Counted from the whole stretch's first letter, positions 12,856 through 59,939 are shown. The stretch is 63,763 bases of DNA, filler included, from Reclinomonas americana ATCC 50394 (GCA_048213135.1; 6 parts of 4 records of this genome joined end to end with filler, not necessarily neighbours in it), one strand, 5' to 3'. Numbers and translations are program-made. Notes: generated by a model not told the origin, from the sequence alone.

Positions 12856-15800
12856 CGAGGGCGAGGGACTGCTGCGCTGGAGGAGTTCTCAACATTTGTG
12901 TGGATCCTGTTCAGTTCCACATGACGAGTATCACTTTGATGAGTGCATGCCCGAGTTGCCAGAATCAGATCACGCCTTGGCAAGGGACGTTTGTATGCAA
13001 CTCGCAACAAAGTATTCTGCGGCCAAGTGGGGCACCATCCCAGACGGTTACAACACTTTTCCCACACTGATTTTGGTTTCTGTTTAACTCATCATTCTCG
13101 TTGCAGATGTCAAGTCAGATCTAATCAGTTCATCGATTCAGGCCGCGGCGAAAGCCGCTATTGCAAAGGCGAATGCCGCTCTGGCCGCGCGACTTGCGCA
13201 GCTCGAGCAAGAGGCTGCAGCTCGCGCCGCTGTAGGGGACGCTGGCCAGCATTCCCCGGAGCGTACGCGTGATGTTTTCGATGAGTCCGCCGACGACAGT
13301 AGATGTTGCGTGCAAAAAGGGTGCTGAGTGTGACGAGCTCGCGAGACGATGGTTTACCAACTGAGTTTTGTGTCACTGTCTTTGCAGTTATACCGATTGC
13401 CAACAGGTTTGATGCCGTGCTTGACCAGCGGAGTCTGAAGTGGGGACTACGCCTTCTCTTAGACGTGGCTGCCGATCTCGTCAACAAGACGAAAAGTGTT
13501 CTCGACCTACAATGCCGGCAAGCACTCATGCAAGGTACGTGTGACAATAGCAACGCTGTCATAGTGCTCTCGCTTCTTCTGAGTGAGTTCGCGGCAGGGT
13601 TTGTGCGCCTCGCAAACTGGGAAATGAGCAGCATGCTGCAAGTCGGCGAAGACCTGCGCGCCATTGTGTGTGACGATTGCTTGGCGTCAGTCACGCGTGA
13701 CATTCATCAGTCGCTCCGCGAGTTGTTGTCGGGTTCGGTGGATGGCGTGAAGTATTCGACTCTGGAGTCGGTGGATGAGGATGTGGCTCTGTTGGCTGAC
13801 GAAGTGGAAGAGGACGCGGAACCAAAACACAACTTCAAAGTGTACGGCTGTGCACCTTGTATCTCGCAGTCGCTCATCTCTCCTTTGTTTTTCTTACTTT
13901 TGCCGTCTGACAGGCCACTGATTTATGTGAGATATCTCATGGAGAGTTCGGTTCTTGGTGTTGGTGACGATGCAGGTGCCAGCGGCAGCGGTGGTGAATC
14001 GGCTGCGACCCATCGCGTGCTAAATATTGACTCTCAAATCTACAATCCTGAGTGTGCGTGACGGCGGTGAGTTTGTGTGTCTGCACACTGCCACTTAAGT
14101 GGTGTGGTGTCGTGCGCAGTTTTCGCCGGCAGCGAAACTTGCGTCGAGGGCACCGTGTGGACCGGTATGTTTGGATGCATATTGAGGATGCAGTCGGTCG
14201 CGGTGGCTGCACCAGAAGAGACCCCCTTTTCGGTGGTGTACACGCACGGCGCAGTGGTGTCGAAGCAGCCACCTCGTGGTTTGTGCTGCAATTTCACGGT
14301 ATGCATGCACAATCACTCAGTGACTGCGATGTTTTTTTGTTTGTTTGCAGCGCCAGGACGTGGTCGCAGGGCGACCGGCACTGCGAATGCGGGTCCGTCG
14401 ACCGAGCCAGCGGCCACGAATGCGGAGGCCACAGGCGGGACGAGAATGATGGACTTGGGCCTCGTTTTGCGCCAGTACACCAGTGTTCGTGACGAGTACA
14501 ATTCGCTCCCAGTGTTTCTGACAGAGAACAAGTCGGGTATCTCGTTCTGGAATGCGTAAGTACTGTGTGTCTGATCTCTCCCGAGCTCAGCGCTTGGGGT
14601 CTGAAATATGGTACTCATTGTTGTTGTTGTCGTATGTGTATATGTGCGTGATCACAGGGTGACTCCGGCCAACGTACCTCCAGGTGTGGCTGCTGCCTCC
14701 CTCGTTCGTGTCTGCAACAACGTGAGGGCCGGCAATCGCACGAGCGCCGCACTGGACGACTTGAATGTTCTCAGTGAGGCTGGCGTGATTCAGCAGAGGG
14801 CACGGACCTCGCTTGGCTTGCTGCGCCATCCAGACGCCAAGAAGGTTTTCGAGTCGATGTGGGTTTCGTTGCACCAGCTGGCGGCGTATGTGGAGCCAGG
14901 ACGCGAAAAAGAGCTTACGGTGTTCGGCGGTCTCACGGGGCACTCATCGGTGGCCATTTTCGAGTGTCACTTTGTCAGTACCGATGTTGTCGGCTACTCT
15001 GCGCTTGGCGTCTGGCAGTTTGCCAGCTGCGGAGTGACGGCGCGCGAAATGTTGCACAGCGAGTTTCTTGGCTTGCGAGGTGCGTGTGTGTGTGTGTGTG
15101 TGTCATCGTTGGTGAGTTCATCATCTTTATCATCATTATATATTGTGCTTTGTGCAGTGGGCACGGTGGTGTCACTACATGCGGTGCTGCTTGCAATCTT
15201 GAAGACGGCACACCGAACTGCCGCTCTGCTTCACGCAACTGTACGGCAGGAGCGATTCCACCAGGCGATCGTTCGGGCCAACCCATCGCTCAGCTCGTGG
15301 AGCTCAAGCCAGAGTGGCGCCACTCCTCAGCATGACAGCACAATCGTTGGGCCGTCGATGACGGACCAAGGCGCCAAAAACTCCAACGTCGTTACCAAGA
15401 CAACGAGCACACAGCAAGCGCAGGTAGAAGCGCAAGTGCTGAGGACGCTGTACAACGACGCTGCTATTCGCGTCTTCTTGCCGCAGCTGCTGAGAGAGGA
15501 GCCGCAGCGAGGTGTTCTGGTGTTCGAGCAAGTCCCCGACGACGTGCTGTTCAACATCGACGAGGTGGCTATTGCGGTGCGCGACGCGCTCTTGGTACTC
15601 CGCAGCTTGCACGCCCACCACATCGTGCACTGCGACATCAAGCCGGTGCACATTCTTTTCGACCGAAAACGACAAGGTGCGATTCTGATCGACTACAACT
15701 TGTGCGTGATGCTGCGCGAGGACGGCGCCCGCCAGTATGGCAGCAAGCGCGGCACCCGAGGCTTTTTTGTACGTTGCATCGCACGCGTGTCCTCCATTGT

Positions 15801-16434
15801 TGTTATGTTGTTGGGTTTGCTGACCGCCATGTGTACGTTCGCTGCGTTACGGAAGGCGCCTGAGATGTGCGGATGGGACGGCGAGCGTCATCCGTGGGGC
15901 GTGGAAGTCGACATGTGGAGCCTCGGAGTGACGTTGGCCATGATGCTGATGGGCCAAAAGTACCCATGGTACACGGATTCGTTGCACCCGTTTGACGTGC
16001 GGCACGTTCTCGAAGAGGCCACTTGCGAGAAGCGTGACATGTGCACGAAGGAGGGGTCGGCTGCGTGGCACAAGTGGAGCCTGGCCATCGACCTCATGGG
16101 ACTCATGACGGCGCTGGAGCCCGACGACCGCATCAGCGCGGCCGATGCTCTGCAGCACGAGTGGTTCGCCACGTGCCCGCCTGTGTCAGTACCTGTGTCG
16201 GTACCTGAGTCGGTGCCTGTGTCGGCGCCAGCGTCCACCCCCGTTGTCACGCATTCGCAGGCGGTAGCTGCGGCACCGCCGCGTGTGGTGAAAAAGACGA
16301 ATGCCGCGGCCGAAGGCCGGATTCCGTTAGCAACGCTCTCAGCGAGTCAACGCAACCGGCAGCCAGCGGCTGCAGTCAGCAGCAAAGCCGCTGGTAGCAG
16401 TCGCGAACGTCAGCAAGCACCGGCGCCCCTCTGA
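11481..16434 (+). CDS. Putative PD-(D/E)XK nuclease-like + atypical Ser/Thr protein kinase fusion (Crinkler/CR-effector-like architecture)
   Basis: Kinase motifs: VVTK...E, HIVHCDIKPVH, LIDYNL, GTRGFF|APE (87-nt in-frame intron 15769-15855), DMWSLG, RISAADALQHEWF. Upstream exons give MMDLGLVL...PVFLTENKS...HQLAAY...VFGGLTGHSSVAIF. Start is tentative (ATG G|GTGAGT at 11481); first firm exon is 12915-13046. Confidence 0.75.
11611..11703. repeat. (TG)n microsatellite
   Basis: Perfect TG run of about 46 units. Confidence 0.95.
12505..12795. repeat. Intronic 18-bp minisatellite (GAGAGCACGAGCGACAGA)n
   Basis: More than 10 tandem, progressively diverging units flanked by (GA)n. Confidence 0.85.
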
Positions 16435-19018: not shown

Positions 19019-19209
19019 GTGCGTCAATCACGAAGTACCAACATCTTGGTCACTAGTTGACCTGTTCCTTCCCCCTTCTCCTTCCCCCTGTTCCTTCCCC
19101 CTGTTCCTTCCCCCTTCTCCTTCCCCCTTCTCCTTCCCCTTCTCTTCCCCTGTTCCTTCCCCCTGNNNNNNNNNNNNNNNNNNNNNNNNNNNNNNNNNNN
19201 NNNNNNNNN

Positions 19210-19221
19210 TTAATTAATTAA
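19210..19221. other. Artificial contig spacer TTAATTAATTAA (stops in all six frames) inside an N block
   Basis: Identical 12-mer flanked by 44 Ns on each side; recurs five times in the window. Confidence 0.95.
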
Positions 19222-19816
19222 NNNNNNNNNNNNNNNNNNNNNNNNNNNNNNNNNNNNNNNNNNNNAAGGGAAGGGTGAGGGAAGGGGAGGGAGAAGGGGA
19301 AGGAGAAGGGGAAGGGGAAGAGGAAGGCAAAAGAGAGAGAGAGAGAGAGTGAGTGAGTGAGTGAGTGAGTGAGTGAGTGAGTCAGTGAGTGAAGGAGTGA
19401 GTGTGTGAGCGAGTGTGTGAGTGAGTGAGTGAGGGAAAGAGTGAGGGAGTGAGTGAGAGAGAGAGAGAATGCAGTGAGTGAGTGAGTGAGTGCGTGTGCG
19501 AGTGAGTGAGAGGGAGTGCATGAGTGAGTGAGTGAGTGAGAGTGAGAGTGAGTGAGGGAGTGAGTGAGTGAGTGAGTGAGTGAGTGAGTGAGTGAGTGAG
19601 TGAGTGAGTGAGTGAATGAGCGAGTGAGTGAGAGAGAGAGACACTGGAAGCGAGTGAAAGAGAGAGTGAGAGAGAGAGAGTGAGTGAGTGAGTGAGTGAG
19701 TGTGTGTGTGTGTGTGAGTGAGTGAGTGAGTGTGAGTGTGTTATGCGAATATTGATGCATGCATGCATGTGTTGTCTGTTTCGTTTGGTTGTCTCCCTTT
19801 CTGTGTGTTACGCAAC

Positions 19817-20201: not shown

Positions 20202-20933
<732 letters not shown>

Positions 20934-22949: not shown

Positions 22950-24136
22950 ACAAGTGATCAAGTGACCGCATTGACGACGGACTCGATCGACATGGAGAAG
23001 CTCTGTGGCTGCAGCTCGAGGCAAGCACATTTATACGTCCGCTCTCGGAAGTCGGGAACTGCGATCCGCATCGCGTGAACCTGCGAGGCTGAGAGCAGGA
23101 ATAGCAGAAGGAGCGATGCAAGTGATCGTGGCCAAAGTCGTCCTTGCCGACTGACAGCATGCCCGCAGCTGCACTCAGGATGAACATGGAATGTCAGAAG
23201 TCCGATGGCTGCTGCTTTTTTGCGCTCGTCGACAGCAAGCACTCGGCACGTGAGTAACGACCGTTGTCCAACTGTTGCTGCATTCTGCTCACGTCACCTG
23301 GCAGCGTGCAGAAGCACATCACTCCGCTGCAACCGCTGTCTTGATGCACAGCATTCAAGCAGCTTCACCCCGAAAGAGCAGAAGAGTTAGTCCGATTGTT
23401 GTCACCTGCTGTTCGCGTCCGTTGACAGCACTCCTCACACATAGTGAGTGAAGTGCACCACTCCGCAATCATCTCTGCCACTCCCAACTGCCGAACCACA
23501 TCCGGATCCTTCACTCGGAACGACCGGTGGTCATACACACGCACACTCACACACACACACATACAAAAGAGCCTCTGCAACAGACAGAGAGGGGGAAAAG
23601 GGTGTCCCTCTCACAGTTGATCGTTGACGATAAATCTGCAAACAGCGCGTCAGTTTTCAAATGCACGACGCCTGCGTGGCAGTGGGCAGTTGCGTACCGA
23701 TTGCCCTCGGATTGCTTGCCGCAGTAGACGTATCTGTAACCACACGTGAGAGATTGGTGCAATGGAACAACACACCGCACACCACAAGACCTTGTGTATC
23801 CTGCAAAAAATAAACAAACCATGTCAGACACCGACTTCCTTCCCTGCTCTACTCCCACAACATCCACTCACCAAAGTACGCGCCCGGATCCGCACCACCC
23901 TCCTCGCTCCCGTCTTCCGCCCGTCGCGGTGGGGCAATGGATGAGGCTTGTGCGGCGGCGGTGGCGGCGGCGGCGGCAGAGGGACTGGCGGGTGCGCCAG
24001 ATGCCGAGGCAGCGNNNNNNNNNNNNNNNNNNNNNNNNNNNNNNNNNNNNNNNNNNNNTTAATTAATTAANNNNNNNNNNNNNNNNNNNNNNNNNNNNNN
24101 NNNNNNNNNNNNNNCTCTCTCTCTCTCTCACACACA

Positions 24137-25977: not shown

Positions 25978-28408
25978 TCACTCCACTGACCAAACCTCGT
26001 AGTCCTGCACGCGGAAGTTTTGCGACCCCACTAGTGTTGTGTTGTTGCACTGACCACCATCTGTGGCGACATAGTCTCCCGAGCCGAGACGGGAGCACGA
26101 GGCCTCGTTCGTGTCACAGCGATTCGCAATTGAGAGGCATGGAGACTGTCGGCTACCAAAGCACGGTCCACTCTGAGGGTCGCTTTGTGTCGCATACACA
26201 TTCTGCGCGAATGAAACCGAAGAAAGGCCGAACCGGCGAGCTGGTTGACCGATTGCTGACGCAGCAAACAAGAAACTTTGTTTGCTCCCATCGGTGACCC
26301 TGCGTGCAGATCCGTCAGAAGACCAGGGGACCGGCGTGTATCCACCGCACACGCGACCCGTGGTCGTCCGCACCACCGTGAGGGTGGCACTGTACGCGGA
26401 GTGACGTGAGGGCGAAGCGTGCTGTTTCATACCGCGCGTTGAGGAAGTACAAACTCACCCGCGATAATCGCAGCAGCGATGGAAGTCTGCAGCGGCGGAT
26501 CCGTTGACAGACGAGCGATACAGCCTCTTCAGTTGCGGCTTTGCTCCACCCCATGCGGCAGAGAGCCATTGCATCAGTGGCGCGGAGTCTGCGCGTGACA
26601 GGAGGTCACTTCCGACACGACCTCTTCTCGATTGTGGAACCAGCTTTTCCACCCTCACAGGACAGCATCGATACAACATCCACTGGTCGACTCGCTCCTT
26701 CGGAAAGCACTGCGAGTCGAAAACGTCGTCAAAGCACCTGGTGACACGAATGAGCTGCAGAAGAAAGAGAGTGTGCACACAATTCGAAGATTTAGAGCAC
26801 CTGTCAAACGGAAGGCACGATAGACGAATAAATTCTTGCAGTGGTGCAGTGGCCTCCGCCATGCGAGCTCGTTCTTCTGACGTCCATTGCTGTGGCTGCA
26901 CAGTTCTGACTTCAGCGTGGTGGCTGCTCAACGGACATGTACAACTGTTGGTTAGCTATCGCAGACTCGAAGAACGATGCAGACACGTGCACATACCGCG
27001 CATACGCCATCATCACTGCGAAACAGTCTTCCTCTTCGCAGCTGAGGGTCAGTCGGCGGAGTATCAATGTGAAAGCATCGATGCTGAGGCGTGGGACTTG
27101 TGGATTGTCAGGTGCCAAGACGACGACGGCGTCGCGGTCAACCACGCGCAGACAGTCGTCCACAATCTTCAGCTCGTCGTGAGCCATGGCTCCGACCTGC
27201 AAGGAGTAAGTGCGCGGATGGGAAAAAGTTCACAAACACAACAATCCTAATACGCAATAAACGCAACAAGCAGTGGCAGCACATTTTGTGCATCGATGCT
27301 CTTGTTGATAACATCCCGGCAGTAGGCCACCAGTGCCTCGATGCGCAGCTCATCGGCAGCGCGCATCAAATCAAAGGCGTCTTCGACCTTCACCTTGGCG
27401 ATGCCCTGTGTGATAATGAGTAAGTTGTGAGGCTCAGTGAAGCAATTAGCATGTGGCATGGAACCTGGTGGAAGTAGTCGAGGATGATTCGCATCAGGTC
27501 GGGGCGGATGTTTGGCTTCTCCCTGTGACGCGATGAAGAGAGTGAGCGCGCAGGAGGAAGAAATACCAAGGTAGCGTTAGCGCAGCAGGAAACGCAAGAT
27601 AAGAAGCACTATAGCCAGCGGCAACATGCCGAGATGAAAGAGACATCAACAAAGNNNNNNNNNNNNNNNNNNNNNNNNNNNNNNNNNNNNNNNNNNNNNN
27701 NNNNNNNNNNNNNNNNNNNNNNNNNNNNNNNNNNNNNNNNNNNNNNNNNNNNNNNNNNNNNNNNNNNNNNNNNNNNNNNNNNNNNNNNNNNNNNNNNNNN
27801 NNNNNNNNNNNNNNNNNNNNNNNNNNNNNNNNNNNNNNNNNNNNNNNNNNNNNNNNNNNNNNNNNNNNNNNNNNNNNNNNNNNNNNNNNNNNNNNNNNNN
27901 NNNNNNNNNNNNNNNNNNNNNNNNNNNNNNNNNNNNNNNNNNNNNNNNNNNNNNNNNNNNNNNNNNNNNNNNNNNNNNNNNNNNNNNNNNNNNNNNNNNN
28001 NNNNNNNNNNNNNNNNNNNNNNNNNNNNNNNNNNNNNNNNNNNNNNNNNNNNNNNNNNNNNNNNNNNNNNNNNNNNNNNNNNNNNNNNNNNNNNNNNNNN
28101 NNNNNNNNNNNNNNNNNNNNNNNNNNNCGCGCAACTCCACACGCTCCTCGCCCGCGACAATCACAAAGTCGCTCATCGCGGGGTCGGTGGCAATCGCGTG
28201 GGCGATTTGCCGAACCAGCTGCTTTTGGTGATTCAGCTGAGCGATGAGGGGGAAAGAATGAGTGAGTGTGGAGGAAGTGGGGAGTGAGGAGAGATTGGCT
28301 CACCGTGTTCGCCATAAAAGTTTTTCTGCCGTATCTTGACACGACTGTGCGGGATTCGAAATCTGACACGAATTCTGGCGAGGTTATCAAACGGTGTTCC
28401 GGCCACAT
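25978..28408 (-). CDS. BTB/POZ-BACK-TLDc domain protein
   Basis: BTB: DPAMSDFVIVAGEERVELR[gap]...PNIRPDLMRIILDYFH...AFDLMRAADELRIEALVAYC. BACK-like: NVLPLL...LILRRLTLSCEEEDCF. TLDc: LYRSSVNGSAAADFHRCCD, TLTVVRT, GGYTPVPW, SFLF, GPCFG, FRVQDYEVW. Confidence 0.9.
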
Positions 28409-30630: not shown

Positions 30631-32227
30631 TGAGTGGGAGGAGAGGGAGGGGGAAGGAGATGGAGTGGGAGATAGAAAGGACAGAGATAGATAGAGAGAG
30701 GGAAAGGAAACAATGAGCGAGGCGCCGAAAGAGATTCCTTCGATTTGAACGCAGACGTGTGCTGGTGGTTCTTCCTCGCGGCTGTTCTATTTCTCAACAT
30801 TGATCCGACAACCCTCAGAAACAGTTGCAGCAATAGCTGCAAAAGAAAACACCCGCGTTTAGTTGGCGATCACTTGAAAATGCTGAGGCATATGGATCAG
30901 TGAGAGGAGAGAAGTGACAGGGAGAAGGCGGAGCGAGAGTGCAAGAGATGCAGGGAAGAGAGAGAGAGAGAGAGGAGGGATAAGGAAGTGAGTGACGGAA
31001 CGACTGAGATGGCTGTTGCGACCGAGGGAGGGAGACGAAAGATTAGAGAGAAAGAGATTAGAAATTTAGAGAGAGAGAGAAAGAAAAGATAGAGAGACTT
31101 GGACGGCGACTGCGACCGAGTGAGAGAGATATCGAGAGGGGACAACACTTGGGCTTCTACCTCTGGAGTGCGTTTTTCTTTCTTTCTCTCTCTCTCTCCC
31201 TCCCTCTCTCTCCCTCTCTCACTCTCTCCGTATCTTTGACTGAGAGAGAGGGGCGAATGAGATGAAAGTAGACTGTGCAACCGAAGGGAGAGATGGGCGT
31301 GGCAGAAGAGCTTCAGTGATGCTCTTGAGAATGTCACTCGTGGCAGCTAACTTAGTTTTCGCCGCACAGCATCATATCGGTGAGCACCCTTCCGTTGCCC
31401 CACAAGCTGAGCAGCGCAAATTTCGCCTGTGGACAGTGTGTGGCAGCATTGAGGCGGGCCAGGCACTGATATCGATCGGAACGGCGCCACCACTCTTTCA
31501 GCGGCCGGCTGACGCCTGGCTGGCAGCCATTCAGCGGCCACAGAGCGATCAGCCGTGCCCCCCGGCAGAATACGACGATGAAGGCGAGGAACGAGATCAT
31601 TCGATCGCGCAAGCACCGCTTCTCCTCTTTTGCTATTTCGCAGTGGAGTGTGGCGACGCAGCTTGACGGACGTGCACCTGCAGCAGGATGAGGACGAGTA
31701 CGCCACAAGCGCAGTTCATGTTGCGTACTATTGTCTCTCTGTGTGCGTGTGTGGTGTCAGATCGCGATATCGTCTCGCAATCAAATGCGCCTCCAACCCC
31801 ATGGCCAGTGCTCCTCCACCTTCTTCTGCGCAGTCTTGCCCGTCCATGGCGCATTCTGCTTCTTGGCACGACATCAACAACGGACGGATGGTACCGTCGC
31901 CCTCTCCCCTCTCTCCCCCTTGACCTCAAATCTATCCACGTGCACCCACAAGGCTTGCGCAGTAGACGATCGAGACATGCAAGACGAGTTTGGAACGACT
32001 GCGAAGACACACGCCGACAATCGGTGGTGAGCAGTCGTCTTTTTCAGTTCGACTTGCTTTCTTTTTTCCTTTTGCCACTCTGTGCCTCGACCTCACCGTT
32101 TCCCCCTTTTGCCTGTGCGCGAACGGTCTACAGACATCACCGCGAGCCACCAGATATCCAGCAGACGTGCTCGCGATATCCATTCCGGCCATATCACACT
32201 GTTTTTTTTGCTTTCGCTGAGAATAGT

Positions 32228-33661
32228 ATGTTTGCCTCCCGCGTTTCTTTCCTTGCCCTTGTGCTCGCCCTCGTCGCGGTCGCCCTCGCCTCCGTGTACG
32301 TTGTCGAGGCGCGCCGTATGAGTCGCGAAGAGATGCGTCAGGCGCTGGCGGAGTTGGATGGTGAGCTCCACATGCAATGTCTTGTCCCCCTTTTCTTTGC
32401 TGATGATTGACGCCACACATTAGAGGCCGGCATGTTCGAGGTCGAGGAGGAGGAGAGCTTTGATGAGGATGAGGATGAGGGTGCGTGTGCTCGATAGTTT
32501 TCTTCTTGTCTTTTTTCTTCCCACTCTTTATTTCTCCTGTGCGCTATAGCACATGCATATATATGCGTGTGCCACATATGCGTGTGCTTTTACTCTCTCT
32601 CTCTCTCTCTGTGCTCTGCGCGCTGTCTACCCGTGTCTGTGCTACATGCGTCATAAGTGACGTATATGTCCACTACTACTAACGTACTACGTACTACTCG
32701 TACGTCNNNNNNNNNNNNNNNNNNNNNNNNNNNNNNNNNNNNNNNNNNNNNNNNNNNNNNNNNNNNNNNNNNNNNNNNNNNNNNNNNNNNNNNNNNNNNN
32801 NNNNNNNNNNNNNNNNNNNNNNNNNNNNNNNNNNNNNNNNNNNNNNNNNNNNNNNNNNNNNNNNNNNNNNNNNNNNNNNNNNNNNNNNNNNNNNNNNNNN
32901 NNNNNNNNNNNNNNNNNNNNNNNNNNNNNNNNNNNNNNNNNNNNNNNNNNNNNNNNNNNNNNNNNNNNNNNNNNNNNNNNNNNNNNNNNNNNNNNNNNNN
33001 NNNNNNNNNNNNNNNNNNNNNNNNNNNNNNNNNNNNNNNNNNNNNNNNNNNNNNNNNNNNNNNNNNNNNNNNNNNNNNNNNNNNNNNNNNNNNNNNNNNN
33101 NNNNNNNNNNNNNNNNNNNNNNNNNNNNNNNNNNNNNNNNNNNNNNNNNNNNNNNNNNNNNNNNNNNNNNNNNNNNNNNNNNNNNNNNNNNNNNNNNNNN
33201 NNNNNNNNNNNNNNNNNNNNNNNNNNNNNNNNNNNNNNNNNNNNNNNNNNNNNNNNNNNNNNNNNNNNNNNNNNNNNNNNNNNNNNNNNNNNNNNNNNNN
33301 NNNNNNNNNNNNNNNNNNNNNNNNNNNNNNNNNNNNNNNNNNNNNNNNNNNNNNNNNNNNNNNNNNNNNNNNNNNNNNNNNNNNNNNNNNNNNNNNNNNN
33401 NNNNNNNNNNNNNNNNNNNNNNNNNNNNNNNNNNNNNNNNNNNNNNNNNNNNNNNNNNNNNNNNNNNNNNNNNNNNNNNNNNNNNNNNNNNNNNNNNNNN
33501 NNNNNNNNNNNNNNNNNNNNNNNNNNNNNNNNNNNNNNNNNNNNNNNNNNNNNNNNNNNNNNNNNACGCCTCCCGCCCAACGTACAAGAATACGACCTAC
33601 CAACGAGCAACGGACGACATGGTGAGTCACGTATATATTATCGTGTGCCACTATAGTCGTG

Positions 33662-33713
<52 letters not shown>

Positions 33714-34384
33714 GCATCATTTTCGCGTGTCAAGTTTTCTCATTTTATCCCTTTTCCAGTCCAACTCTTATCTCTTTCTTTCTTCTCCTTTCTCCCCAGT
33801 TCACTTCCTCGCTTCTTCTTCTCCTCCTCCTCCCTCCCTCCTCTCTCTCTCTCTCCCAGATCTACTCGTCTATCCCTGTTCCTCCATCCCTCCCTCCTGT
33901 TGCCGATCTTTAATCTTTCACTTCCTCCCTTTCCTCTCTCCTTTTCCCTCGAGCTCTCCCCTCCTTTCCGGTCTCTTTCTCACCCATTCCCCCGCGGCCA
34001 GATCTCGTGCAAGTGTGGAACCCCACCTACGAGAGCCCGGTCGAATTCAAGAAGAAGAAGACCGGCGCCGTGCGCTTCGTGTCGCGCTTTGTGACGATTG
34101 CCCCGCGCCAATTCGGCGGCGGCAGCGAGATTGCCTGGTGGAAGAGCGCCGCCAAGCTGAACGAGGCCAAGCAGGGCGACGGCACCGGCATGCTCAACCA
34201 CTACCCGACGGCCAACGCCAAGTACCGCATCATCAATGGCACCACGCTGCGCGTCAAGTTCGCCTCGGGCCAACAGGGCGTTCCCGACTGGACTGGCGTC
34301 ATTGAGACGCGCCAGCAGGATCAGGCCGGCTTTGTGCAGGCATTGACTACGGCCGGCGCCGCTGTCGACAACAACCTCGCGTAA
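32228..34384 (+). CDS. Secreted-family paralog 1: signal peptide + acidic segment + PH-fold-like domain (~190 aa)
   Basis: Exons 32228-32360, 32424-32480 and 34002-34384 total 573 nt in frame: MFASRVSFLALVLALVAVALASVYVVEARRMSREEMRQALAELD-EAGMFEVEEEESFDEDEDE-DLVQVWNPTYESPVEFKKKK...VDNNLA*. The gap in intron 2 could hide further copies. Confidence 0.85.
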
Positions 34385-34421
34385 CGCTCTTACTGTATGT
34401 AAGCGACACTTTTTGTAAAGT

Positions 34422-34446
34422 GCGGATATCCAGGATATTGCTCGCG
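34422..34446 (+). promoter_or_regulatory. Family-specific upstream motif GCGGATATCCAGGATATTGCTCGCG
   Basis: Position-conserved counterparts upstream of all four paralogs (32153-32175, 34422-34446, 36087-36111, 38263-38287), ending 42-53 bp before each ATG. Confidence 0.65.
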
Positions 34447-34487
34447 CGCGTGTTCGTGCGTGTTAGTTTGTTTGCTGAGAGAACAGA

Positions 34488-34969
34488 ATGATCGCTTCTC
34501 GTGTGTCTTACCTTGCCTTTGTGCTCGCTCTTGTGGCGATTGCCATTGCCTCTGTGTATGTCGTCGAAGCTCGTCGCATGAGTCGCGAAGAGATGCGTCA
34601 GGCGCTGGCGGAGCTTGATGGTGTGTCTATCTCTCTCTCTCTCTGTGCTTGTATAGTCCCACCTCTCTCTCTCTCTAACACGTAGGGCGACACAGAGGCC
34701 GGCATGTTTGAGGTCGAGGAGGAGGAGAGCTTTGACGAGGAGGAGGACGAGGAAGGTGCGTGTTCCCTCTGTCTCTCTCTCTCTCNNNNNNNNNNNNNNN
34801 NNNNNNNNNNNNNNNNNNNNNNNNNNNNNNNNNNNNNNNNNNNNNNNNNNNNNNNNNNNNNNNNNNNNNNNNNNNNNNNNNNNNNNNNNNNNNNNNNNNN
34901 NNNNNNNNNNNNNNNNNNNNNNNNNNNNNNTCGTCGTCGTCGTCGTCGTACGTCGTCGTCGTCGTCGTC

Positions 34970-35024
<55 letters not shown>

Positions 35025-35628
35025 TCTCCCTCTCTGTCATCTTGTGGCTCTTCTTCTCGCTGCCCTTCTCTGTCTACTTTCCTCTCTCTCTCTTGTCTCA
35101 CTCTCTCTCTCTCTCTCTTTCTCTTCCCCCTGCACTACCCATTGTTTACTTGCTTCTCATGGTTTCTCTTCCTCAGTTTTGAGCGCTCTTCCCTCTCTCT
35201 AACTCTCTTTCTCTCTCTCTCTCACCCCTCCTTGCTTGTTTGCAGAGTTTGCGCAGGTATGGACCCCAACGTACGAGAGTCCTGTGGAGTTCAAGAAGAA
35301 GAAGACGGGCTCGAGGCGCTTCGTGTCGCGATTCCTGACGATTGCCCCGAAGCGTCCTGGTCCCGGCAACGAGATTGCGTGGTGGAAGAGCGCTGCGAAG
35401 CTGAACGAGGCCAAGCAGGGCGACGGCTCTGGCATGCTCAACCACTACCCGCTGGCCAACGCCAAGTACAAGATTGTCGACACCAAGACGCTGCGCGTCA
35501 AGTTCGCCTCGGGACAGCAGGGCGTCGCCGACTGGACTGGCCTCATTGAGACGCGCCCGGAGGATCAGGCCGGCTTTGTCGCGGCGCTGACCACGGCCGG
35601 CGCGGCTGTTGATAACACACTGGCGTAA
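34488..35628 (+). CDS. Secreted-family paralog 2 (~191 aa)
   Basis: Exons 34488-34620, 34696-34755 and 35246-35628 total 576 nt in frame; same architecture and intron phases as paralog 1. Confidence 0.88.
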
Positions 35629-36158
35629 TCTGCTGTACAGTTGAGAGAGGGAGAGAGCAGTGAAAAATGGCCCTGTTGTTGCTGTAATCGACAAGAGAGA
35701 GAGAGAGAGAGAGAGAGATGGATGTAGGAACGTTGTACGTCTCCACTTCTCAGGGGCCGAAGGAGTGACGCTGGATCGTAAGGTGCTCTTTGACAAGTCA
35801 CCGCACATCTTGCATTTAAGTCACTGCCAGACGGTGCGCATTCTCCTCTCTTTCTCACACACACATATATATATATACACACACACACACCAACACTGAG
35901 CGTGCAAGCACCAGCGCGCGCCGGTCAGCACAGACATGTTTAAATTTCATCGATATCGTGCTTGTACTTTGATTGCAATCAATCGACGATTAGTGCCGGC
36001 ACCATCGCTTTATCAAGCTAGCGTTATATATGCTCAGCACCGTAGAAGAGAGCACCCCTTCGATTACCGACATCTTGGTTGCACAGGCGAATATCGTGGA
36101 TATCGCTCGCGCGTGACGCACCTCTGTCCTCTCTCTCTCTCTGGTGTGCGCGAACAAA

Positions 36159-36483
36159 ATGTCTCCACGAGTGACTTGTGCATTCGGTGTGCTGTTGCTG
36201 TTGTTGTTGGTTTTGGGAGTGGTCGCACACTGTGCAGAGGCTCGACGCATGACGCGCGAAGAGATGCGTCGAGCGCTGGCGGAACTCGATGGTTGTTTGT
36301 TGCTCTTGTGTGTGTTGTCTCTCTCTTGCTCTACTCACTGCGCATGACTCAGAGGCTGGCATGTTTGAGGTTGACGATGAGGANNNNNNNNNNNNNNNNN
36401 NNNNNNNNNNNNNNNNNNNNNNNNNNNTTAATTAATTAANNNNNNNNNNNNNNNNNNNNNNNNNNNNNNNNNNNNNNNNNNNN

Positions 36484-36549
<66 letters not shown>

Positions 36550-37479
36550 GGGCGATATCTCATCGTCCTCTCGTTGTGCCTGTTCTCTATCTTGTCCTTC
36601 TTGTCTTTTGTTCTCCTCGTTCCCCTCCTCCCTCTCCACCACCACCTCCTCTTTCTCCACTTCCTCCTCCTCCGACCTCTCGTCCTTCATCTCCCTCTCT
36701 TCTTCGTTTCCTCGTCCTCCTCATCCACCACCACCACCACCACCACCACCACCACCACCACCACCACCACCACCACCACCACCACCACCACCACCACCAC
36801 CACCACCACCACCGCCGCCGCCGCCGCCACCACCATAGTACCACCACCACCTCTCCCAGGTCCTTCTCGTTCTTCGTCCTCTTTCTCCTCTACCTCCTCT
36901 TGCTCCTACACCTCCACCTCCACCTCATCCGGCCTCTCGTCCTTCTTATCCTCTTCCTCCTCCATGCTCCAATGTGCTTCTTTCCTGCCTTCCCTGGTCC
37001 TCTTTCTCTTCTCCCTCCCCTTCCCCATTCCCCCTCCCCTTCCTCCTTCCCTTTGTCGCCCCTTTCCCCACCCTTTACCCTTTACCCCCACGACAGGCTT
37101 CGCCCAGCTCTGGACTCCGACCTACGAGAGCCCCGTGGAATTCAAAAAGAAGAAGAACGGCATGCGTGAATTCATCTCGCAGTTTTTGACGATTGCCCCG
37201 CGCACCGGCGGCGGCTTTGAGCTGGCCTGGTGGAAGACCGCCGCTGACCTCGCCGAGGCCAAGAAACGCGACGGCTCCGGCATGCTCATCCGCTTCCCCC
37301 TCTCCACCGCCAAGTACAAGATGGTCAACAAGACCACGCTGCGCGTGAGGTTCTCCACGGGTGTGCAGGGCGCGAAGGATTGGGCAGGCATCATCGAGAC
37401 CCGCGAGCAGGATCAGGCCGCGTTCATCATGGCGCTCACCAATGGTGGCGCTCTCCTCGACAACTCCCTTTCTGCGTAG
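36159..37479 (+). CDS. Secreted-family paralog 3 (more divergent)
   Basis: Exon 36159-36291 (MSPRVTCAFGVLLLLLLVLGVVAHCAEARRMTREEMRRALAELD), exon 2 from 36353 (cut by a spacer), exon 37097-37479 (383 nt, the same length as exon 3 of paralogs 1 and 2). Confidence 0.8.
36428..36439. other. Artificial contig spacer TTAATTAATTAA
   Basis: Same N44-12mer-N44 structure. Confidence 0.95.
36725..36835. repeat. (CCA)n/(CCG)n trinucleotide microsatellite, intronic
   Basis: About 29 CCA units followed by CCG units. Confidence 0.9.
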
Positions 37480-38056
37480 TCGACTTGTTCGTGAAGACAG
37501 CGGGCTGTTTGTTTGCTGGCGAGGGAATTGTTGCAGTTGTATCAGTTTCTGGTGCTCTCTTCAGAGTGACCCGAGCCCTTGATCACCATTGAGTTTCGGT
37601 CAGGTAGCTTGCTCTCCGAAGAGAGGAAGCTAACAGGAGCGAACCGAGAAGGAGAGGACCCATGTTCAATCGTCAGGGTGTCCTCGACTCTCCTCTTCTT
37701 CCACACGCAATTGCAAGTGGGTTATCGTCATGCAGGCTGCGTTACTGCTTGGATTCGTACAATCGCTGCTGCTGTTGCACCGCCCATGCTTGTCACGAGC
37801 CGTGGTTTCACTTGCAGGACAGCATTAGACATTTCGACTTTTTTCGAATTCTCATCGTTTCCTTGATGTCTCAGTTTCTGATGCTCACTCAAGATGGTGA
37901 TCATCATGCTGCTTGGATAAGCATTGTCGTTGGTGTTGTTGTATGCGTGTTGGATCGATATCGATTGGTGACCAGTTCCATCGATTGCTGTTGTCACTGA
38001 TACAAGCGCACTGTGTCAAATCACGCTGTGCCGTGCCTCCACAATCTACGCTGCAT

Positions 38057-38250
38057 ACTTGCCTGTCAGCGCATCGTCACATGTAGACAACGGAATACAA
38101 GAAGGAAGTGACGACGTCGACCATGCATATGGCCAATGACAGCTATATATTGCGCATGCGTTGTTGCTGGTACATGTACACTTTGACGAATTGCGCTGTG
38201 CGTCCACCATTACGCACTTGCCTGTCAGCGCATCGTCACATGTAGACAAC
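38057..38250. repeat. Perfect 35-bp direct repeat pair upstream of paralog 4
   Basis: ACTTGCCTGTCAGCGCATCGTCACATGTAGACAAC at 38057-38091 and 38216-38250. Confidence 0.85.
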
Positions 38251-38331
38251 TGTTGTAGTCGCGCGGATATCTCGGATATTGCTCGCGACACTGTCCATTC
38301 TTCTTTCATTCTCTCGTGTGTTTACGAACGA

Positions 38332-38571
38332 ATGTTTTCTCGAGTGACCTTTGCGTTTGCTCTGTTGCTTTTGGTGGCAGTTGTCGCACACTGCACAGAG
38401 GCACGTCGCATGACGCGTGAGGAGATGCGTCAGGCGTTGGCGGAACTTGATGGTGAGTGAGAGAGAGAGTGTGTGTGTGTTTGCTCTCTGTCTCTCTCTC
38501 TCTCTCTCTCACACACACTTGTTCGTGCACAGTGGCTGGTTTGTTTGAGGTGGATGATGAGGATGCAGCAG
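38332..38571 (+). CDS. Secreted-family paralog 4 (exons 1-2 only; exon 3 lost at contig spacer)
   Basis: 38332-38452 MFSRVTFAFALLLLVAVVAHCTEARRMTREEMRQALAELD; 38533-38571 VAGLFEVDDEDAA. Confidence 0.78.
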
Positions 38572-38708
38572 GTAACAAGAGAGAGTGAGAATGGTGTCAC
38601 TGTTGTCTTTGCATGCAAACAGTCACTTCTCTCTCTCTCACACACGCGCACACATTCAAACACACTCCACTGCTCACCCACTGTTCACAGTTGACCCGCA
38701 CTGACTTT

Positions 38709-38752
<44 letters not shown>

Positions 38753-38796
38753 NNNNNNNNNNNNNNNNNNNNNNNNNNNNNNNNNNNNNNNNNNNN

Positions 38797-38808
38797 TTAA
38801 TTAATTAA
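38797..38808. other. Artificial contig spacer TTAATTAATTAA
   Basis: Same N44-12mer-N44 structure. Confidence 0.95.
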
Positions 38809-38957
38809 NNNNNNNNNNNNNNNNNNNNNNNNNNNNNNNNNNNNNNNNNNNNTTGCCTTACGGATTCGGGTGACGCACCATAACTTTTCAGTTTTATCAA
38901 GTTCTTCCATGGACAACGCACAACGGCAAGTGGTCTCTCACATCGTCGACTCCACTT

Positions 38958-39988
38958 TCACTGTGCTGGCTGCTGCCGACTTTTTCCGCGCGAGAGCGCC
39001 TCCGCATTCAGCTGCAGCTGGTCGATCATGCTCATGGCCCTTTCGAGCTGGCTCTCCTGCTTAACGGAAACACTCCGCAGCTCCTCGTAGCGCGCCTCGA
39101 CCGCACTACGCTCCCGCCTACTCGCGTCCAGTTCTTCTCTCAGCTGCGCCTCAGCTGCACTGTGTTCCCGCCGCCTCGCGTCCAGTTCTTCTCTCAGCTG
39201 CGCCTCGACTTGTGCTGCGCGCTCTGTTGACACATGCATCTGTTCCTCCAATTGTTGACGCTCGCAGGTGGCCGTCTCCAGTCCACGCTGCAGCCGCTGT
39301 CGGTCCTCGTGACACGAGGCGAGCTGCGTTCGCACGACCACCATCTCGGCGGCGTTCTCCTCCTGGATTCGCCCGCTCTTCTCCGCTGCCTCCTGCCGCC
39401 ATTGATTTTCGCATCTGGCAACTTGCAGTTCCGACTGTTGTTGACGAAGTTGCGTCTGCAGCTGAAGCCGCTCGTCTTGCAGTCGTTTTGTGGCCTCCAC
39501 TTGAGCTTCAAGCTGCTTCTGTAGACCATCCTGTTCGGCGGCCGCTACCTGCAGCCCTTGCTGCCGCCGCTCGGCGATTCTCATGCAGCTGGTGAGCTCC
39601 TGTTCCAGTCGTCGGACCTGCCGCTGAAGGTCGGCGCGCTCTTGTTCCAACTGCTCATTCGCGGTCCGCTGTTGGTTCACCGTCCGTTGCAAGCTGTCCA
39701 GCTGACCTTGCCTCGCGGCTAGGTGGATTTGGTACCCTGTCGTCGCCTGTTGCTGCGCTTGCGTTGCCGCCTTCAGCTGAGCTTGCAAGTCTCCACACAT
39801 GTGTTCGTGCTTGTCGGCCTCCACCTGTCGGCGGCGATTTGCCGAACTGAGATCGCGTTCACAAACGGCAAGGTTCGCTTTCAACTGCTCGCACTCTCGA
39901 TCCGCGCACCGCACACGTTCCTGCCACTCAGAGCATTGTCGGCAGCGCTGTTGTTGCGGGTCGACGTACGGATCCGCGCGTGACTCGC

Positions 39989-40020
<32 letters not shown>

Positions 40021-40715
40021 CCGTTTTGTTGTTGTGGTTGATGCGGTTGCAGATCTAGAAGCTGTGGTGGTGGTGCTGGTGCGTTCTTCTGCTGCGGTTG
40101 TTGTTGCTGTTGTCGATGCGGTTGCACAGGCTGCGGCTGCGGCTGCTGCGGAAGTGGCGGCGGTCTCGGAACAGACTCCACGACGAGCGCCTCTTGCCGT
40201 TCAACCAGGAGCTTGACGGCGTACATGTGGCAATAATTGGCGGCCAACTGCGCAGCGGTGGCAGTCTTGCCATCTTTCATGCGCTTGACCATGGGGACAA
40301 GGTTCGGGTACCTGGTGGCAAGGCGAGCGGCAATCGCCCAGTGGCCTCGACGTGCGGCGTTATGCAGTGCCGTGTTGCCACCAGCGTCAGTGGCCAGCGC
40401 CATCTCCTGCGAGCAGCGACGGTCGTCTTCGAAAAGCCATTCCACCACTTGCGTGCGCCCATTCCAGGCAGCTGTCATGAGGGGCGTTCTTCGGCGGCTG
40501 TCGGTCAAGGACGCCAGTTGCAGACCGACACCGCTGTCGCTCCACAGAAAGGCGAGTATGTCGAGCTGATTGTATCGTGCGGCGACGAAGAAGACCGACG
40601 CGCCGTCACGATCCATGTTCGCTGGCTGCAGCAACGACTGCGCACCCTGGCGGGCGACAAAGTCGCGCAGCGCTGCCAGTTGGCCGGCGGCGGCCATGTC
40701 GATGGGGCTGCGCAT
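38958..40715 (-). CDS. Ankyrin-repeat protein with poly-Q linker and long C-terminal coiled coil
   Basis: Ankyrin motifs SVFFVAARYNQLDILAFL, RTPLMTAAWNGRTQVVEWL, GNTALHNAARRGHWAIAARL, TAAQLAANYCHMYAVKLL; Q/E/R heptad-rich tail. Start taken at MRSPID (40715); an upstream exon is possible. Confidence 0.85.
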
Positions 40716-41877
40716 GCGGAGCGGGGGGAGAATGTCAGGGTTCAGTTGATATACACAGGACTGATGGTGTTGAGTCGACAGAGAAAAGGAAAAACAAGAG
40801 AGAGAGAGCGAGAGAGAGCAGAAATGAGCCTCGAAGATCAAACTGTGTGAGACAAGTGCGATTGGAGAATGGCGACGTGGATCACACGCAGCGGGCATAC
40901 ACACACACGCGTGCGCGCAAGTACAGCCGACGCACCAGCTCATGTTGAGTTTTTCCGAGCGCGCGAGGTCGAACACAAAAAAACACGGTGTTATTTTGGG
41001 AGTTGTCTGCCGGGTGGTCTTGGAAGGAGGGATGTCGTCGGATTCCAAATTGGTACCCGACACTGCCTATAGTTATTTTTATTTCTTTTTTGCGCAACTG
41101 AGCAACGCATGCGCAGAACCGGAAAAGCCATCACCCATCGAGCATCGCCGACGTCGACCGCTGCGGTCAGCAGCAGGTGGTCTCTCGCAATCCTGCCGCT
41201 GCCCCTTCAAGACTGGTATTTCTGTTGATCGCTTGGATATGGTTGGACTTGATCAGTGTCAAGGGAAGAGACAGATGGGTGACTTCGCGCGATCGTGTCC
41301 TCCTCATGTCCTCTTTGTTTCTCTGCCAGCCTCGTCAGTGAGACGGAGTNNNNNNNNNNNNNNNNNNNNNNNNNNNNNNNNNNNNNNNNNNNNNNNNNNN
41401 NNNNNNNNNNNNNNNNNNNNNNNNNNNNNNNNNNNNNNNNNNNNNNNNNNNNNNNNNNNNNNNNNNNNNNNNNNNNNNNNNNNNNNNNNNNNNNNNNNNN
41501 NNNNNNNNNNNNNNNNNNNNNNNNNNNNNNNNNNNNNNNNNNNNNNNNNNNNNNNNNNNNNNNNNNNNNNNNNNNNNNNNNNNNNNNNNNNNNNNNNNNN
41601 NNNNNNNNNNNNNNNNNNNNNNNNNNNNNNNNNNNNNNNNNNNNNNNNNNNNNNNNNNNNNNNNNNNNNNNNNNNNNNNNNNNNNNNNNNNNNNNNNNNN
41701 NNNNNNNNNNNNNNNNNNNNNNNNNNNNNNNNNNNNNNNNNNNNNNNNNNNNNNNNNNNNNNNNNNNNNNNNNNNNNNNNNNNNNNNNNNNNNNNNNNNN
41801 NNNNNNNNNNNNNNNNNNNNNNNNNNNNNNNNNNNNNNNNNNNNNNNNNNNNNNNNNNNNNNNNNNNNNNNNNNNNC

Positions 41878-44285
41878 TCGGTTTCCGCACTGCTGCTGGC
41901 CCTCGCCTCTGGCGTGCTCACCTATATGCTGCCGCTGCCACCCATCGATCGCGGATTCGGGCCATTTGATGTTGCGCGCTCACCGATCGTCGAAGGTGCT
42001 CTTCTTCTTCAGTGTTGTCTCACTCACCCCGCATCACACAGACCGGCTTCCACGAGGCGACCATCACCGACGCAAACGGCCACTCGCACGTTGTCCGCGT
42101 GTACTACCCGAGCGATTATGAGGACGAGCACCGCGTTCTCCTGGCGCGCTATCCGACACCGTACTTCACGCATGGAGTGCGGACTGCGGTGCGTGACTAC
42201 ACAGCAGCTCAAGGGGCGGTGGTCCATGCCCTCTTCCCTTCAACTTCTCCCTTTCCCCCTTCCCCTTCCCCCTTCTCACCCTCCCCCTTCAACCCCCCTC
42301 AGCGCGCTCTGGCCTCCTTCGCCAAGCTCCCCGCCTTCGTGTTCGAGCACCTGCGACTGCTCGACCTGCCATCCCTTCGCGGCTCTCCCATGGTAGAGTT
42401 TGGTCGCGGCGTGCGACCCGCCCTGCCTGTCGTCCTCTTCTCGCACGGCCTCGGCGGCAATCGCGACATGTGCGTCTCGTCAACCGTCAATCTCCATCAT
42501 CATCATCATCCTCGTCACCCTAATCCTCCTTCTCCTAGTTACGCCTCTGCGGTGCTGAATCTCGCCTCGCACGGCTTCATCGTCATTGTGCTGGAACACA
42601 ATGATGGATCCGCGTCGCTGACCGTTCAGCTGGATGGAACGCACACTCCATACCGGCCACTCACTGCCGAGGAGGCTGCCGATAAGGTTGTGTGCAAAAA
42701 AGACCGAACAACTGTAGATGCTGACGCTGATGGTGCCTCGCACAGACACTGGAAGCCGCCGTACGACGCGGTCAGCTGCTACAGCGCGTGGCCGAGGTGC
42801 AGTCGACCCTGGACTGCGTTCACGAGTGGACCGCAGGGCGGATGGGCCGCGCCAAGGCTGACGTGGCCGACGAAGTGTGGCTGGCCATGTTCACAGGGCG
42901 TCTCAACACGAATCGCGTGGGAGTTGCGTGGCGCACCTGAGTGACTGGAGGGCGCGTATACTGATAGGCATTAGCGCAGATTTTCGGCCACAGCTTTGGC
43001 GCCTCGACGGCGTTCTTGGCGGCCGCCAAGGACGAGCGCATTCATTGCAGTGTGATTATGGTGAGCATGTGCGCTTGGTGAATGTCTGTCTTCTCTGTTC
43101 CTCATTTCGCCTTGTGCAACACAGGATATCTGGTATCTTCCGTTGGTGAGTCTGCCGGCTTGCACCTCTTCGTTCTCCCTCACCCTTCCAACTCACCGTG
43201 ATGTGCAGCTCGACCCCGCCTCGCCTGACACGATGCCAGTTCCGCCAAAGGTTTGCACGACGCTTCCCTCCTCTCTCACTCTGTCACACGCACATAGGTA
43301 CTCACCCGCGCACTCTCACTTGCACATGAATGCACTCTCGCTCGCAAACTGCTTCTCTCCCTCTCTCCCTTCCTTTCCGTCCTTCCCTTCCCATCTCCTC
43401 CTCTCTCTTCCCCCATCTCCGTGTCCTCTCTCTCCTTCCTTTCTCCTCCCGATCTCCTTCTCCATCTCCTCCTTCTCCTTTCTCTCCTCCTCCTCTCCTG
43501 CTCACTCTGTCTTCACCTCTCCCTCCATTCCCTTCCCTTCCTAATCCCACACTCTCCCATCCCTCCCTCCCTCTCCTCCCTCTTCTCCCTCTTCCCCACT
43601 CCCCCTTCCCTTCCTTCCCTCCCTCTCCCCACCCATCCCTCTCCTCCCTGTCTTCTTGCAGACACCGATGCTGCTGATGCAAAGTGAAGCATGGCTCCGA
43701 TGGAAGATCAACCACGAATTCTCCGAGCGAGTTGCACAAATGGCGCCTCGTGCTTCGTTCTTGGTGTGTTGTTGTTGTCCTCCCCAGCGATCATTCAAAC
43801 CTTGCATCTCACTCGCTGCCTGCAGACCATTGCCGAAACCGGCCACCAGGTATCGACATATCTCTCTCTCCCTCCTCTCCTCGTCCGTCGTCCCGCTCAC
43901 TTTTGCTGTGTCACAGAACTTTTCCGATTTCCCACTCTTTGGTAATCTCACCTCTCTCTCTTCTTTCTCGCCTCCCGCCCCGCATCTCACCCTTGCCGAT
44001 CACACCTGTGCAGGCGAAACAATCCAGCGACGCATGCGCCTGGCTGGCAACATTTCCGCGCGGCGTGCGCTGGAAATCGCCAACGACTTTACGTGCAGCT
44101 TCTTCCGCTGGTGCTTGCTCAACGACGCCAGCAACTGCGTGCTGCTACCGAATCCGCCAACCGATCCACAAATCTTGTGGCACTCACACAACCTGCGTGT
44201 CGAGGTGCCTGGCGGTGAGGGAGCGGTGGCGGAAGCAACAGCAGTCGCATCCCCTTCGTCCGAGTCAGAAAATCCTCCACGATAG
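41878..44285 (+). CDS. Platelet-activating factor acetylhydrolase (PAF-AH II / Lp-PLA2)-like alpha/beta hydrolase, 5'-partial
   Basis: VRVYYP, PVVLFSHGLGGNR, LASHGFIVIVLEHNDGSA, QRVAEV, nucleophile IFGHSFG (exon from 42980), DIWYLP, TGHQ-NFSDFP. Start lies in or before gap 41350-41876. Confidence 0.9.
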
Positions 44286-59800: not shown

Positions 59801-59844
59801 NNNNNNNNNNNNNNNNNNNNNNNNNNNNNNNNNNNNNNNNNNNN

Positions 59845-59856
59845 TTAATTAATTAA
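59845..59856. other. Artificial contig spacer TTAATTAATTAA
   Basis: Same structure; the 5' ends of both flanking divergent genes are missing here. Confidence 0.95.
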
Positions 59857-59939
59857 NNNNNNNNNNNNNNNNNNNNNNNNNNNNNNNNNNNNNNNNNNNN
59901 TGAGGGGATGATGCGCAATCAATCGTCACTGTCGATTCA

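Follow-up and report, generated by a model that had tools for sequence, protein, structure and literature searches.

Signal-peptide PH proteins and a tandem gene family

PH domains are the textbook module of cytosolic membrane recruitment, and their combination with a secretory-type leader is rare, not unprecedented. PbPH is a signal-peptide PH protein found on the gamete and ookinete surface, and a candidate malaria transmission-blocking antigen (PMC4818878). CryPH of P. yoelii, a protein of 287 residues with a signal peptide as well as a PH domain, resides in crystalloid bodies; its adjacent paralogue, CryPH-p, has four cysteines in common with it, and there are reports of orthologues from Babesia, Theileria, Cryptosporidium and probably Toxoplasma (PMC6291999). 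The PH domain of these proteins, which are about 286–287 residues long, is recognized by SMART and Phyre2, and the available text of the two reports gives no ligand or mechanism for PbPH or CryPH (PMC4818878, PMC6291999). Here we describe a family formed by four head-to-tail copies of one small gene, on the plus strand at positions 32228–38571 of a DNA stretch of Reclinomonas americana ATCC 50394 (GCA_048213135.1; 63,763 nucleotides (nt) including filler, with 6 parts of 4 records joined end to end; "the window" denotes this whole stretch), whose products would couple a hydrophobic leader to a PH-like domain. Our overall reading, on which our confidence is evenly balanced, is that of a lineage-restricted tandem family of secretory-pathway proteins of about 190 residues, each consisting of a leader, a conserved helix, a polyacidic run and a basic PH-superfold domain that binds an anionic ligand.

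Judged by their descriptions, PbPH and CryPH appear to be the closest working analogues of the family, which is best filed as a sequence orphan akin to these rare signal-peptide PH proteins. The likeness to PbPH/PvPH and CryPH lies in the leader followed by a single PH domain (here a predicted, PH-like one) and in the presence of neighbouring paralogues, CryPH and CryPH-p being adjacent as well. In contrast to the apicomplexan proteins, and comparing by descriptions only, the products here are 190–191 residues long, have no cysteine in the domain and give no Pfam PH match, and they carry a conserved helix and a polyacidic run, features that go unmentioned in the available descriptions of those proteins. 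A literature search for further secreted PH-like effector families found none described beyond CryPH and PbPH, RASP2 being the only other relevant name to come up. The first-pass annotation of the window had started from the premise that PH domains are cytosolic, which is too absolute in view of the signal peptides of PbPH and CryPH/CryPH-p (PMC4818878, PMC6291999).

All four copies follow a common exon layout. The spliced frames of copies 1 and 2 are open over three exons of 133 nt, 57 or 60 nt, and 383 nt, giving 190 and 191 residues, respectively; all introns of the family are GT–AG, and both introns are in phase 1, so that the frame stays open across the joins in these two copies. Exon 3 measures 383 nt in each of the three copies that have it (copies 1–3). 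The features of the family, together with the assembly gaps that interrupt it, are as follows.

32228–32360, plus strand: copy 1 exon 1, hydrophobic leader (28 residues, ending VEA), then the conserved RRMSREEMRQALAELD helix
32424–32480, plus strand: copy 1 exon 2, acidic segment, with GT–AG borders, phase 1
32707–33565: assembly gap of 859 N in intron 2 of copy 1
34002–34384, plus strand: copy 1 exon 3 (383 nt), basic PH-like domain (predicted) and stop codon
34434–34446, plus strand: upstream motif GATATYGCTCGCG of copy 2
34488–34620, plus strand: copy 2 exon 1
34696–34755, plus strand: copy 2 exon 2, acidic segment
34786–34930: assembly gap of 145 N in intron 2 of copy 2
35246–35628, plus strand: copy 2 exon 3 (383 nt), PH-like domain (predicted)
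36099–36111, plus strand: upstream motif of copy 3
36159–36291, plus strand: copy 3 exon 1, leader ending AEA
36353–36383, plus strand: copy 3 exon 2, interrupted by the N gap at 36384
36384–36483: assembly gap of 100 positions, cutting copy 3 exon 2 and intron 2
37097–37479, plus strand: copy 3 exon 3 (383 nt), PH-like domain (predicted)
38275–38287, plus strand: upstream motif of copy 4
38332–38452, plus strand: copy 4 exon 1, leader four residues shorter, ending TEA
38533–38571, plus strand: copy 4 exon 2, with a shorter acidic segment

Within the window, tblastn detects exactly three exon-3 loci and four exon-1 loci, the exon-3 pairs being 61–82% identical (E 1e-52 to 1e-69) and all remaining matches lying at E >0.001. 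Substitutions among the copies are those of protein-coding genes: by the Nei–Gojobori method, the ratio of nonsynonymous to synonymous substitution rates (dN/dS) for exon 3 is 0.24 (copies 1/2), 0.42 (1/3) and 0.27 (2/3), at dS of 0.54–0.94, and for exon 1 it is 0.07–0.39 in five pairs, the pair of copies 1 and 4 being saturated at synonymous sites. Exon 1 of copy 4 is likewise constrained (dN/dS 0.15 against copy 3). In a six-frame control on exon 3 of copies 1 and 2, the modelled frame is free of stops and has the lowest dN/dS (0.24), compared with 0.40–1.99 in the other five, and 36 of the 69 differences between these two exons fall at third codon positions. The first-pass annotation is thus borne out on the four head-to-tail paralogues with their common layout, which both the gene models and tblastn reproduce, on the 383-nt exon 3 of copies 1–3 and on purifying selection. 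Its statement that copy 4 lacks exon 3 holds insofar as none is visible; the absence itself is not established, since a gap of unknown size (38753–38852) begins 182 nt past exon 2, and the exon may merely be unsequenced. Long antisense open frames overlie each exon 3 (33983–34462, 35176–35820 and 37078–37560, all on the minus strand); comparing copies 1 and 2 in the antisense frames gives dN/dS of 0.40–1.51, two of the three frames containing stops, so that by their sequence they seem to stem from composition and not to be genes.

The 13-nt motif GATATYGCTCGCG lies about 45–60 nt before the ATG of copies 2, 3 and 4, with a second GATATC a few bases ahead of it, and copy 1 is preceded by a rearranged variant of the element at about 32151–32181. 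Three matches were observed against 0.08 expected, a count reached in none of 100 shuffles, and the element is the only conserved non-coding block among the introns and spacers of the family; judged from its position and conservation, it is probably a core promoter or regulator site. Taken together, the shared layout, the selection and the upstream element establish that the family is real and under selection, and indicate that its copies are probably co-regulated. The spacer between the copy 1 stop codon and the copy 2 ATG (34385–34487) is 103 nt long and contains the motif, so that copy 1 must end, on its 3′ side, almost within the probable promoter of copy 2. The spacer upstream of copy 4 holds a perfect 35-nt direct repeat (38057–38091 and 38216–38250, 159 nt apart), whose second unit stands directly before the motif of that copy; an alignment reveals a similar block upstream of copy 1.

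The encoded proteins are sharply divided in charge. The leader is followed by the near-invariant sequence RRM(S/T)REEMR(Q/R)ALAELD, a strongly conserved amphipathic helix that opens the acidic segment. The segment as a whole, 36–37 residues long with the helix included, contains 17–18 acidic residues (net charge −13/−14, isoelectric point (pI) 4.05), and its polyacidic run is disordered. The C-terminal domain of 126 residues has a net charge of +6/+7 and a pI of 9.8, while the whole protein minus the leader is at net −7 with a pI of about 4.9. An alignment of the three domains has 72 of 128 columns invariant. The helix motif and the copy 1 acidic linker read as the first-pass annotation had given them, and so do the leader ends; its description of the domain as Lys/Arg-rich stands as far as basicity goes and overstates the content, Lys and Arg making up a modest 15–18 of 126 residues. 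The Pfam search with the exon-1 peptides returned sub-threshold chance matches only (Col_cuticle_N at E 0.012, FSAP_sig_propep at E 0.11 and others, all below cut-off); the FSAP_sig_propep match, on copy 3 exon 1, scored 13 bits against a cut-off of 27 and was rejected.

Searches for sequence relatives were negative throughout, in keeping with the proposal that the family is novel. No true relative was found by phmmer among 1.84 billion representative proteins; three matches at E ≤0.001 were rejected as chance, being internally repetitive proteins matched over short repeated stretches. Word-indexed protein searches yielded no homologue at near lengths and, with a three-sequence profile, none at longer lengths, and scans of contigs with the family alignment left no confirmed relative among the pattern matches (0 of 579 in metagenomes, 0 of 33 in viral and 0 of 19 in prokaryote genomes). 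In the libraries searched, the family is accordingly a lineage-restricted orphan that has been tandemly amplified. Other proteins of the window are likewise absent from these libraries, the EXS family protein described below reaching at best 24–26% identity in its database matches; the organism is therefore poorly represented, and the orphan status is partly a matter of sampling. In a language-model atlas, the cluster nearest to 35248–35625 is eukaryotic, 192 residues long, at a score of 0.89, and of Haptophyta in the two members for which the phylum is known. Having the same length as the present proteins, this cluster could be a true relative, and is offered as a lead only.

Predicted fold of the basic domain

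The domain was modelled with AlphaFold2 from the three-sequence alignment, with copy 2 placed first in run 1 and the most divergent copy (copy 3) first in run 2. Run 1 gave a predicted local distance difference test (pLDDT) of 77.5 and a predicted template-modelling score (pTM) of 0.69, with five models ranging from 77.5 to 51.5; the corresponding values for run 2 were 78.7 and 0.70, with five models from 78.7 to 74.6. Both models have the same order of elements, that is, strands 1–3, a helix, strands 4–7 and a long C-terminal helix, and both form the seven-stranded antiparallel β-sandwich capped by a C-terminal α-helix that defines the PH-like superfold. In Foldseek searches against the PDB, each model obtained three matches at E ≤0.001; the top ones were the RanBD of RanBP3 and the PH domain of Akt1 (E 1.5e-4 to 5e-4, template-modelling (TM) score 0.55–0.66), followed by RanBP1, the dynamin PH domain, EVH1 and the SHARPIN PH domain. 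In a structure search independent of Foldseek, PH-superfold domains accounted for 50 of the 50 hits among the matches listed. The language-model atlas places PH clusters at 0.85–0.89, under its 0.9 line, and these serve only as a lead. By sequence, the three-copy profile run with hmmsearch against PDB sequences gave a single chance match (a 14-3-3 protein, E 0.86).

Thus, a PH-like superfold is well supported as a prediction. The first-pass annotation had assigned the PH elements by eye (β1 to β7 and the C-terminal helix), and each of them falls on a helix or strand of the AlphaFold2 models, the folding and Foldseek check returning a PH-like fold and not another; in this case the bare DNA sequence sufficed to recognize the fold correctly, with profile searches finding nothing. 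Because the fold scores tie, no subfamily (PH, RanBD or EVH1) is assigned. With classical PH domains (Akt1, dynamin, SHARPIN, pleckstrin and GRP1) the domain has in common the predicted seven-strand sandwich, the C-terminal helix and a basic end of strand 1, where KKKK is invariant; it differs from them in showing 5–17% identity in structural alignments, in having a helix inserted between strands 3 and 4, and in being preceded by a secretory-type leader. RanBDs (those of RanBP1, RanBP2, RanBP3 and Nup50) hold the acidic tail of Ran with a basic patch, so that a PH-like domain clasping an acidic peptide has precedent, and this grip offers an analogy for the present domain holding its own acidic linker. 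However, RanBDs have no sequence match to the family, their fold scores tie with those of PH and EVH1 domains, and their role in nuclear transport is incompatible with the secretory leader found here.

Proposed export and masking, and competing explanations

In the predicted working of the family, the leader would direct the protein into the secretory pathway, where the PH-like domain may bind an anionic ligand, either extracellularly or in the lumen of one of the compartments of that pathway; candidate ligands include lipid head groups, glycans bearing phosphate or sulfate, and acidic protein tails. We speculate that the protein's own acidic segment keeps the domain soluble or masked in cis. 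If this holds, recruitment of the PH fold into the secretory pathway would have happened more than once, or the fold would belong there to an old, fast-evolving lineage, and a built-in polyacidic partner would have been added in the present case; the three or four small paralogues would then provide a simple system in which to study the binding partners of a PH fold on the side of a membrane that faces away from the cytosol.

The leader is most likely a cleavable signal peptide, as judged from its features in the copies. It is 28 residues long in copies 1–3 and 24 in copy 4, taking the cut after (V/A/T)-E-A (in copies 3 and 4 from the exon-1 alignment), and ends in VEA, VEA, AEA and TEA in copies 1–4, respectively. 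One conserved Arg precedes the hydrophobic run in all four copies, forming a short n-region; the leader reaches a maximum Kyte–Doolittle mean of 2.9–3.2 over 15 residues; small residues occupy positions −3 (V/A/T) and −1 (A) in four of four copies; copies 3 and 4 have a polar c-region, HC[AT]EA; and the hydrophobic core varies freely, with a deletion of four residues in copy 4. On these grounds export is plausible, and entry into the endoplasmic reticulum (ER) with the domain lumenal, whether or not the leader is cleaved, seems to us probable. Two other targeting schemes were set aside. For plastid or mitochondrial targeting, the post-leader segment is strongly acidic and the N-terminus is hydrophobic, not amphipathic and basic. 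The PEXEL/TEXEL motif has a Leu at its third position and lies further from the leader; RRM(S/T)R has no Leu there and stands too close to the leader.

Several observations weigh against this secretory-pathway reading. As to the domain, each AlphaFold2 model was built from only three sequences, confidence in the models is lowest over β1–β2 (pLDDT 56–60), and none of the three exon-3 peptides matches a Pfam family, PH included (PF00169, PH_n), even with E allowed to reach 10. Classical PH domains have a conserved Trp in the C-terminal helix; in the helix of the present domain (residues 103–117), all copies lack Trp and have an invariant Phe in its place (F110 in A1 numbering). Basic residues that end strand 1 or lie in strand 2 form the head-group pocket of phosphoinositide-binding PH domains; here, those of strand 2 vary among the copies (AVR, SRR and MRE, and further on R, R and Q) within the region of low pLDDT. 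As to the gene model, the join of exon 2 to exon 3 spans an assembly gap in every intron 2. As to the leader, the net charge past the hydrophobic run (+1/+2) about equals that before it (one Arg plus the N-terminus), an invariant RR directly follows the run, and the uncharged run of 21–22 residues in copies 1–3 has the length of a membrane anchor. The domain has no Cys in any copy and an N-x-T sequon, reading N-G-T or N-K-T, at a common position in only two of three copies; nothing positive in the sequence marks the domain as lumenal, and the sequon is weak evidence.

Several observations on the leader would suit an N-terminally anchored cytosolic protein, in which the hydrophobic segment stays uncleaved as a signal anchor in the ER membrane or that of another organelle, the C-terminus faces the cytosol, the acidic run serves as a flexible spacer, and the PH-like domain binds a phosphoinositide or a small GTPase at the membrane. 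With uncharged runs of 21, 21, 22 and 18 residues in copies 1–4, three of the four copies can span a bilayer; the 15 residues after the run, RR included, carry the net +1/+2 given above; and the structural matches of the cysteine-free domain are all cytosolic or nuclear domains. Such an arrangement is nevertheless unlikely in our estimation: it leaves unaccounted for the Arg kept before the hydrophobic run in every copy, the conserved small residues at −3/−1 and the polar c-region of copies 3 and 4, the hydrophobic core of copy 4 amounts to only about 15 residues, and the core changes freely and carries an indel, in the manner of signal peptides.

The first-pass annotation had favoured a prepro factor for killing or defence, stored in granules or extrusomes, in which cleavage of the acidic pro-segment frees a cationic PH-like domain to act on the anionic membranes of prey or bacteria. 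This proposal draws on the charge split (−13/−14 against +6/+7), the tandem amplification with divergence, the orphan status and the invariant KKKK at the end of strand 1. Its comparison with the precursors of antimicrobial peptides (defensins, cathelicidins and frog skin peptides) stands for the order of the segments, namely, signal peptide, acidic pro-segment and cationic C-terminal part, and for the distribution of charge. It fails at the boundary, where the acidic run is followed by L/F-V/A-Q-V-W with neither a pair of K or R nor any other recognizable processing site, and in the product, a globular fold of 126 residues without cysteines and of only moderate charge rather than a short peptide; moreover, dN/dS well below 1 reflects constraint and shows no sign of an arms race. 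The story of killing and activation is unsupported, and we consider the factor as such quite unlikely. Equally slender are the prospects of the idea of a new exported class of PH-fold effectors, in which a membrane- or polyanion-binding PH-like domain operates outside the cytosol (in granules, at the cell surface or on a target cell) and is inhibited in cis by the polyacidic segment until proteolysis or a change in pH or ions; if true, it would represent a zymogen-like switch for a lipid-binding module. The acidic runs of copies 1 and 2 contain S-F-D-E, which we take to resemble S-hydrophobic-x-E/D, a motif at which pro-peptides of apicomplexan rhoptry proteins are cleaved.

The gaps bring up a further explanation, according to which exons 1–2 and exon 3 do not form one unit, additional exons lying in the gaps or exon 3 being spliced elsewhere. 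A run of N is indeed present in every intron 2, and copy 3 exon 2 terminates in one. We infer the join from the threefold recurrence of the order exon 1, exon 2, exon 3, from the agreement in phase and the uninterrupted frame of copies 1 and 2, and from exon 3 itself, which lacks an in-frame start ahead of residue 63 and is preceded by a pyrimidine tract and AG. Furthermore, the sole conserved non-coding block stands upstream of exon 1; blastn among the visible pieces of intron 2 as a search for hidden exons found low-complexity similarity only, with no conserved block; and the stop codon of copy 1 is only about 103–104 nt from the ATG of copy 2. We consider an artefact of the gene models very unlikely. 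Intron 1 is only 61–80 nt long. Intron 2 is long, with CT, CAC/CCA and other pyrimidine-rich microsatellites (32480–34001, 34756–35245, 36484–37096 and 38572–38752; for example, (CAC)n in copy 3 at about 36720–36830), which are probably the reason why the assembly breaks there in each copy.

Slightly less probable still is a delivered effector, which would be secreted and enter a host or prey cell; its PH-like domain would encounter phosphoinositides or a GTPase in the cytosol there, and the RRM..EEM..ELD helix with the acidic run would act as a sorting or uptake signal. The succession of a signal-peptide-like leader, a short motif under strong conservation, an acidic run and a C-terminal module that varies would suit it, as would the tandem array of paralogues and the lack of relatives outside the lineage. 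Against it, there is no sign that the organism is a parasite or a predator, the conserved motif has no matching family (the best Pfam match being the one at E 0.012, below cut-off), and the C-terminal module is itself as well conserved as its invariant columns indicate.

Surroundings of the family

The genes recognized by Pfam elsewhere in the window, none of which is obviously tied to the PH-like family, are given below; Rfam families and tRNAs were sought in the window and none was found. As to lineage, the protein kinase carries no signal, and the language-model atlas gave broad eukaryote clusters.

7488–8808, minus strand: AMP-binding enzyme
14605–16431, plus strand: CAMK-like protein kinase
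20202–20933, plus strand: ubiquitin domain, at the end of an open reading frame (ORF) of 244 residues running into a gap
25981–26454, minus strand: TLDc
38961–41066, minus strand: gene with ankyrin repeats, beyond the gap after copy 4
41970–42941, plus strand: PAF acetylhydrolase
61429–63603, plus strand: EXS family protein, in two exons

The window contains 20 runs of N, ten of which are five pairs of 44 N flanking the linker TTAATTAATTAA. The resulting placeholders of 100 bases (44 N, linker, 44 N) are located at 19166–19265, 24015–24114, 36384–36483, 38753–38852 and 59801–59900; two of them lie inside the family, one in intron 2 of copy 3 and the other downstream of copy 4 exon 2. The linker has stops in all six frames, and the placeholders therefore mark scaffold joins of unknown size. 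The DNA of the window is eukaryotic, with about 55% G+C outside the gaps, GT–AG introns and many CT and CAC microsatellites.

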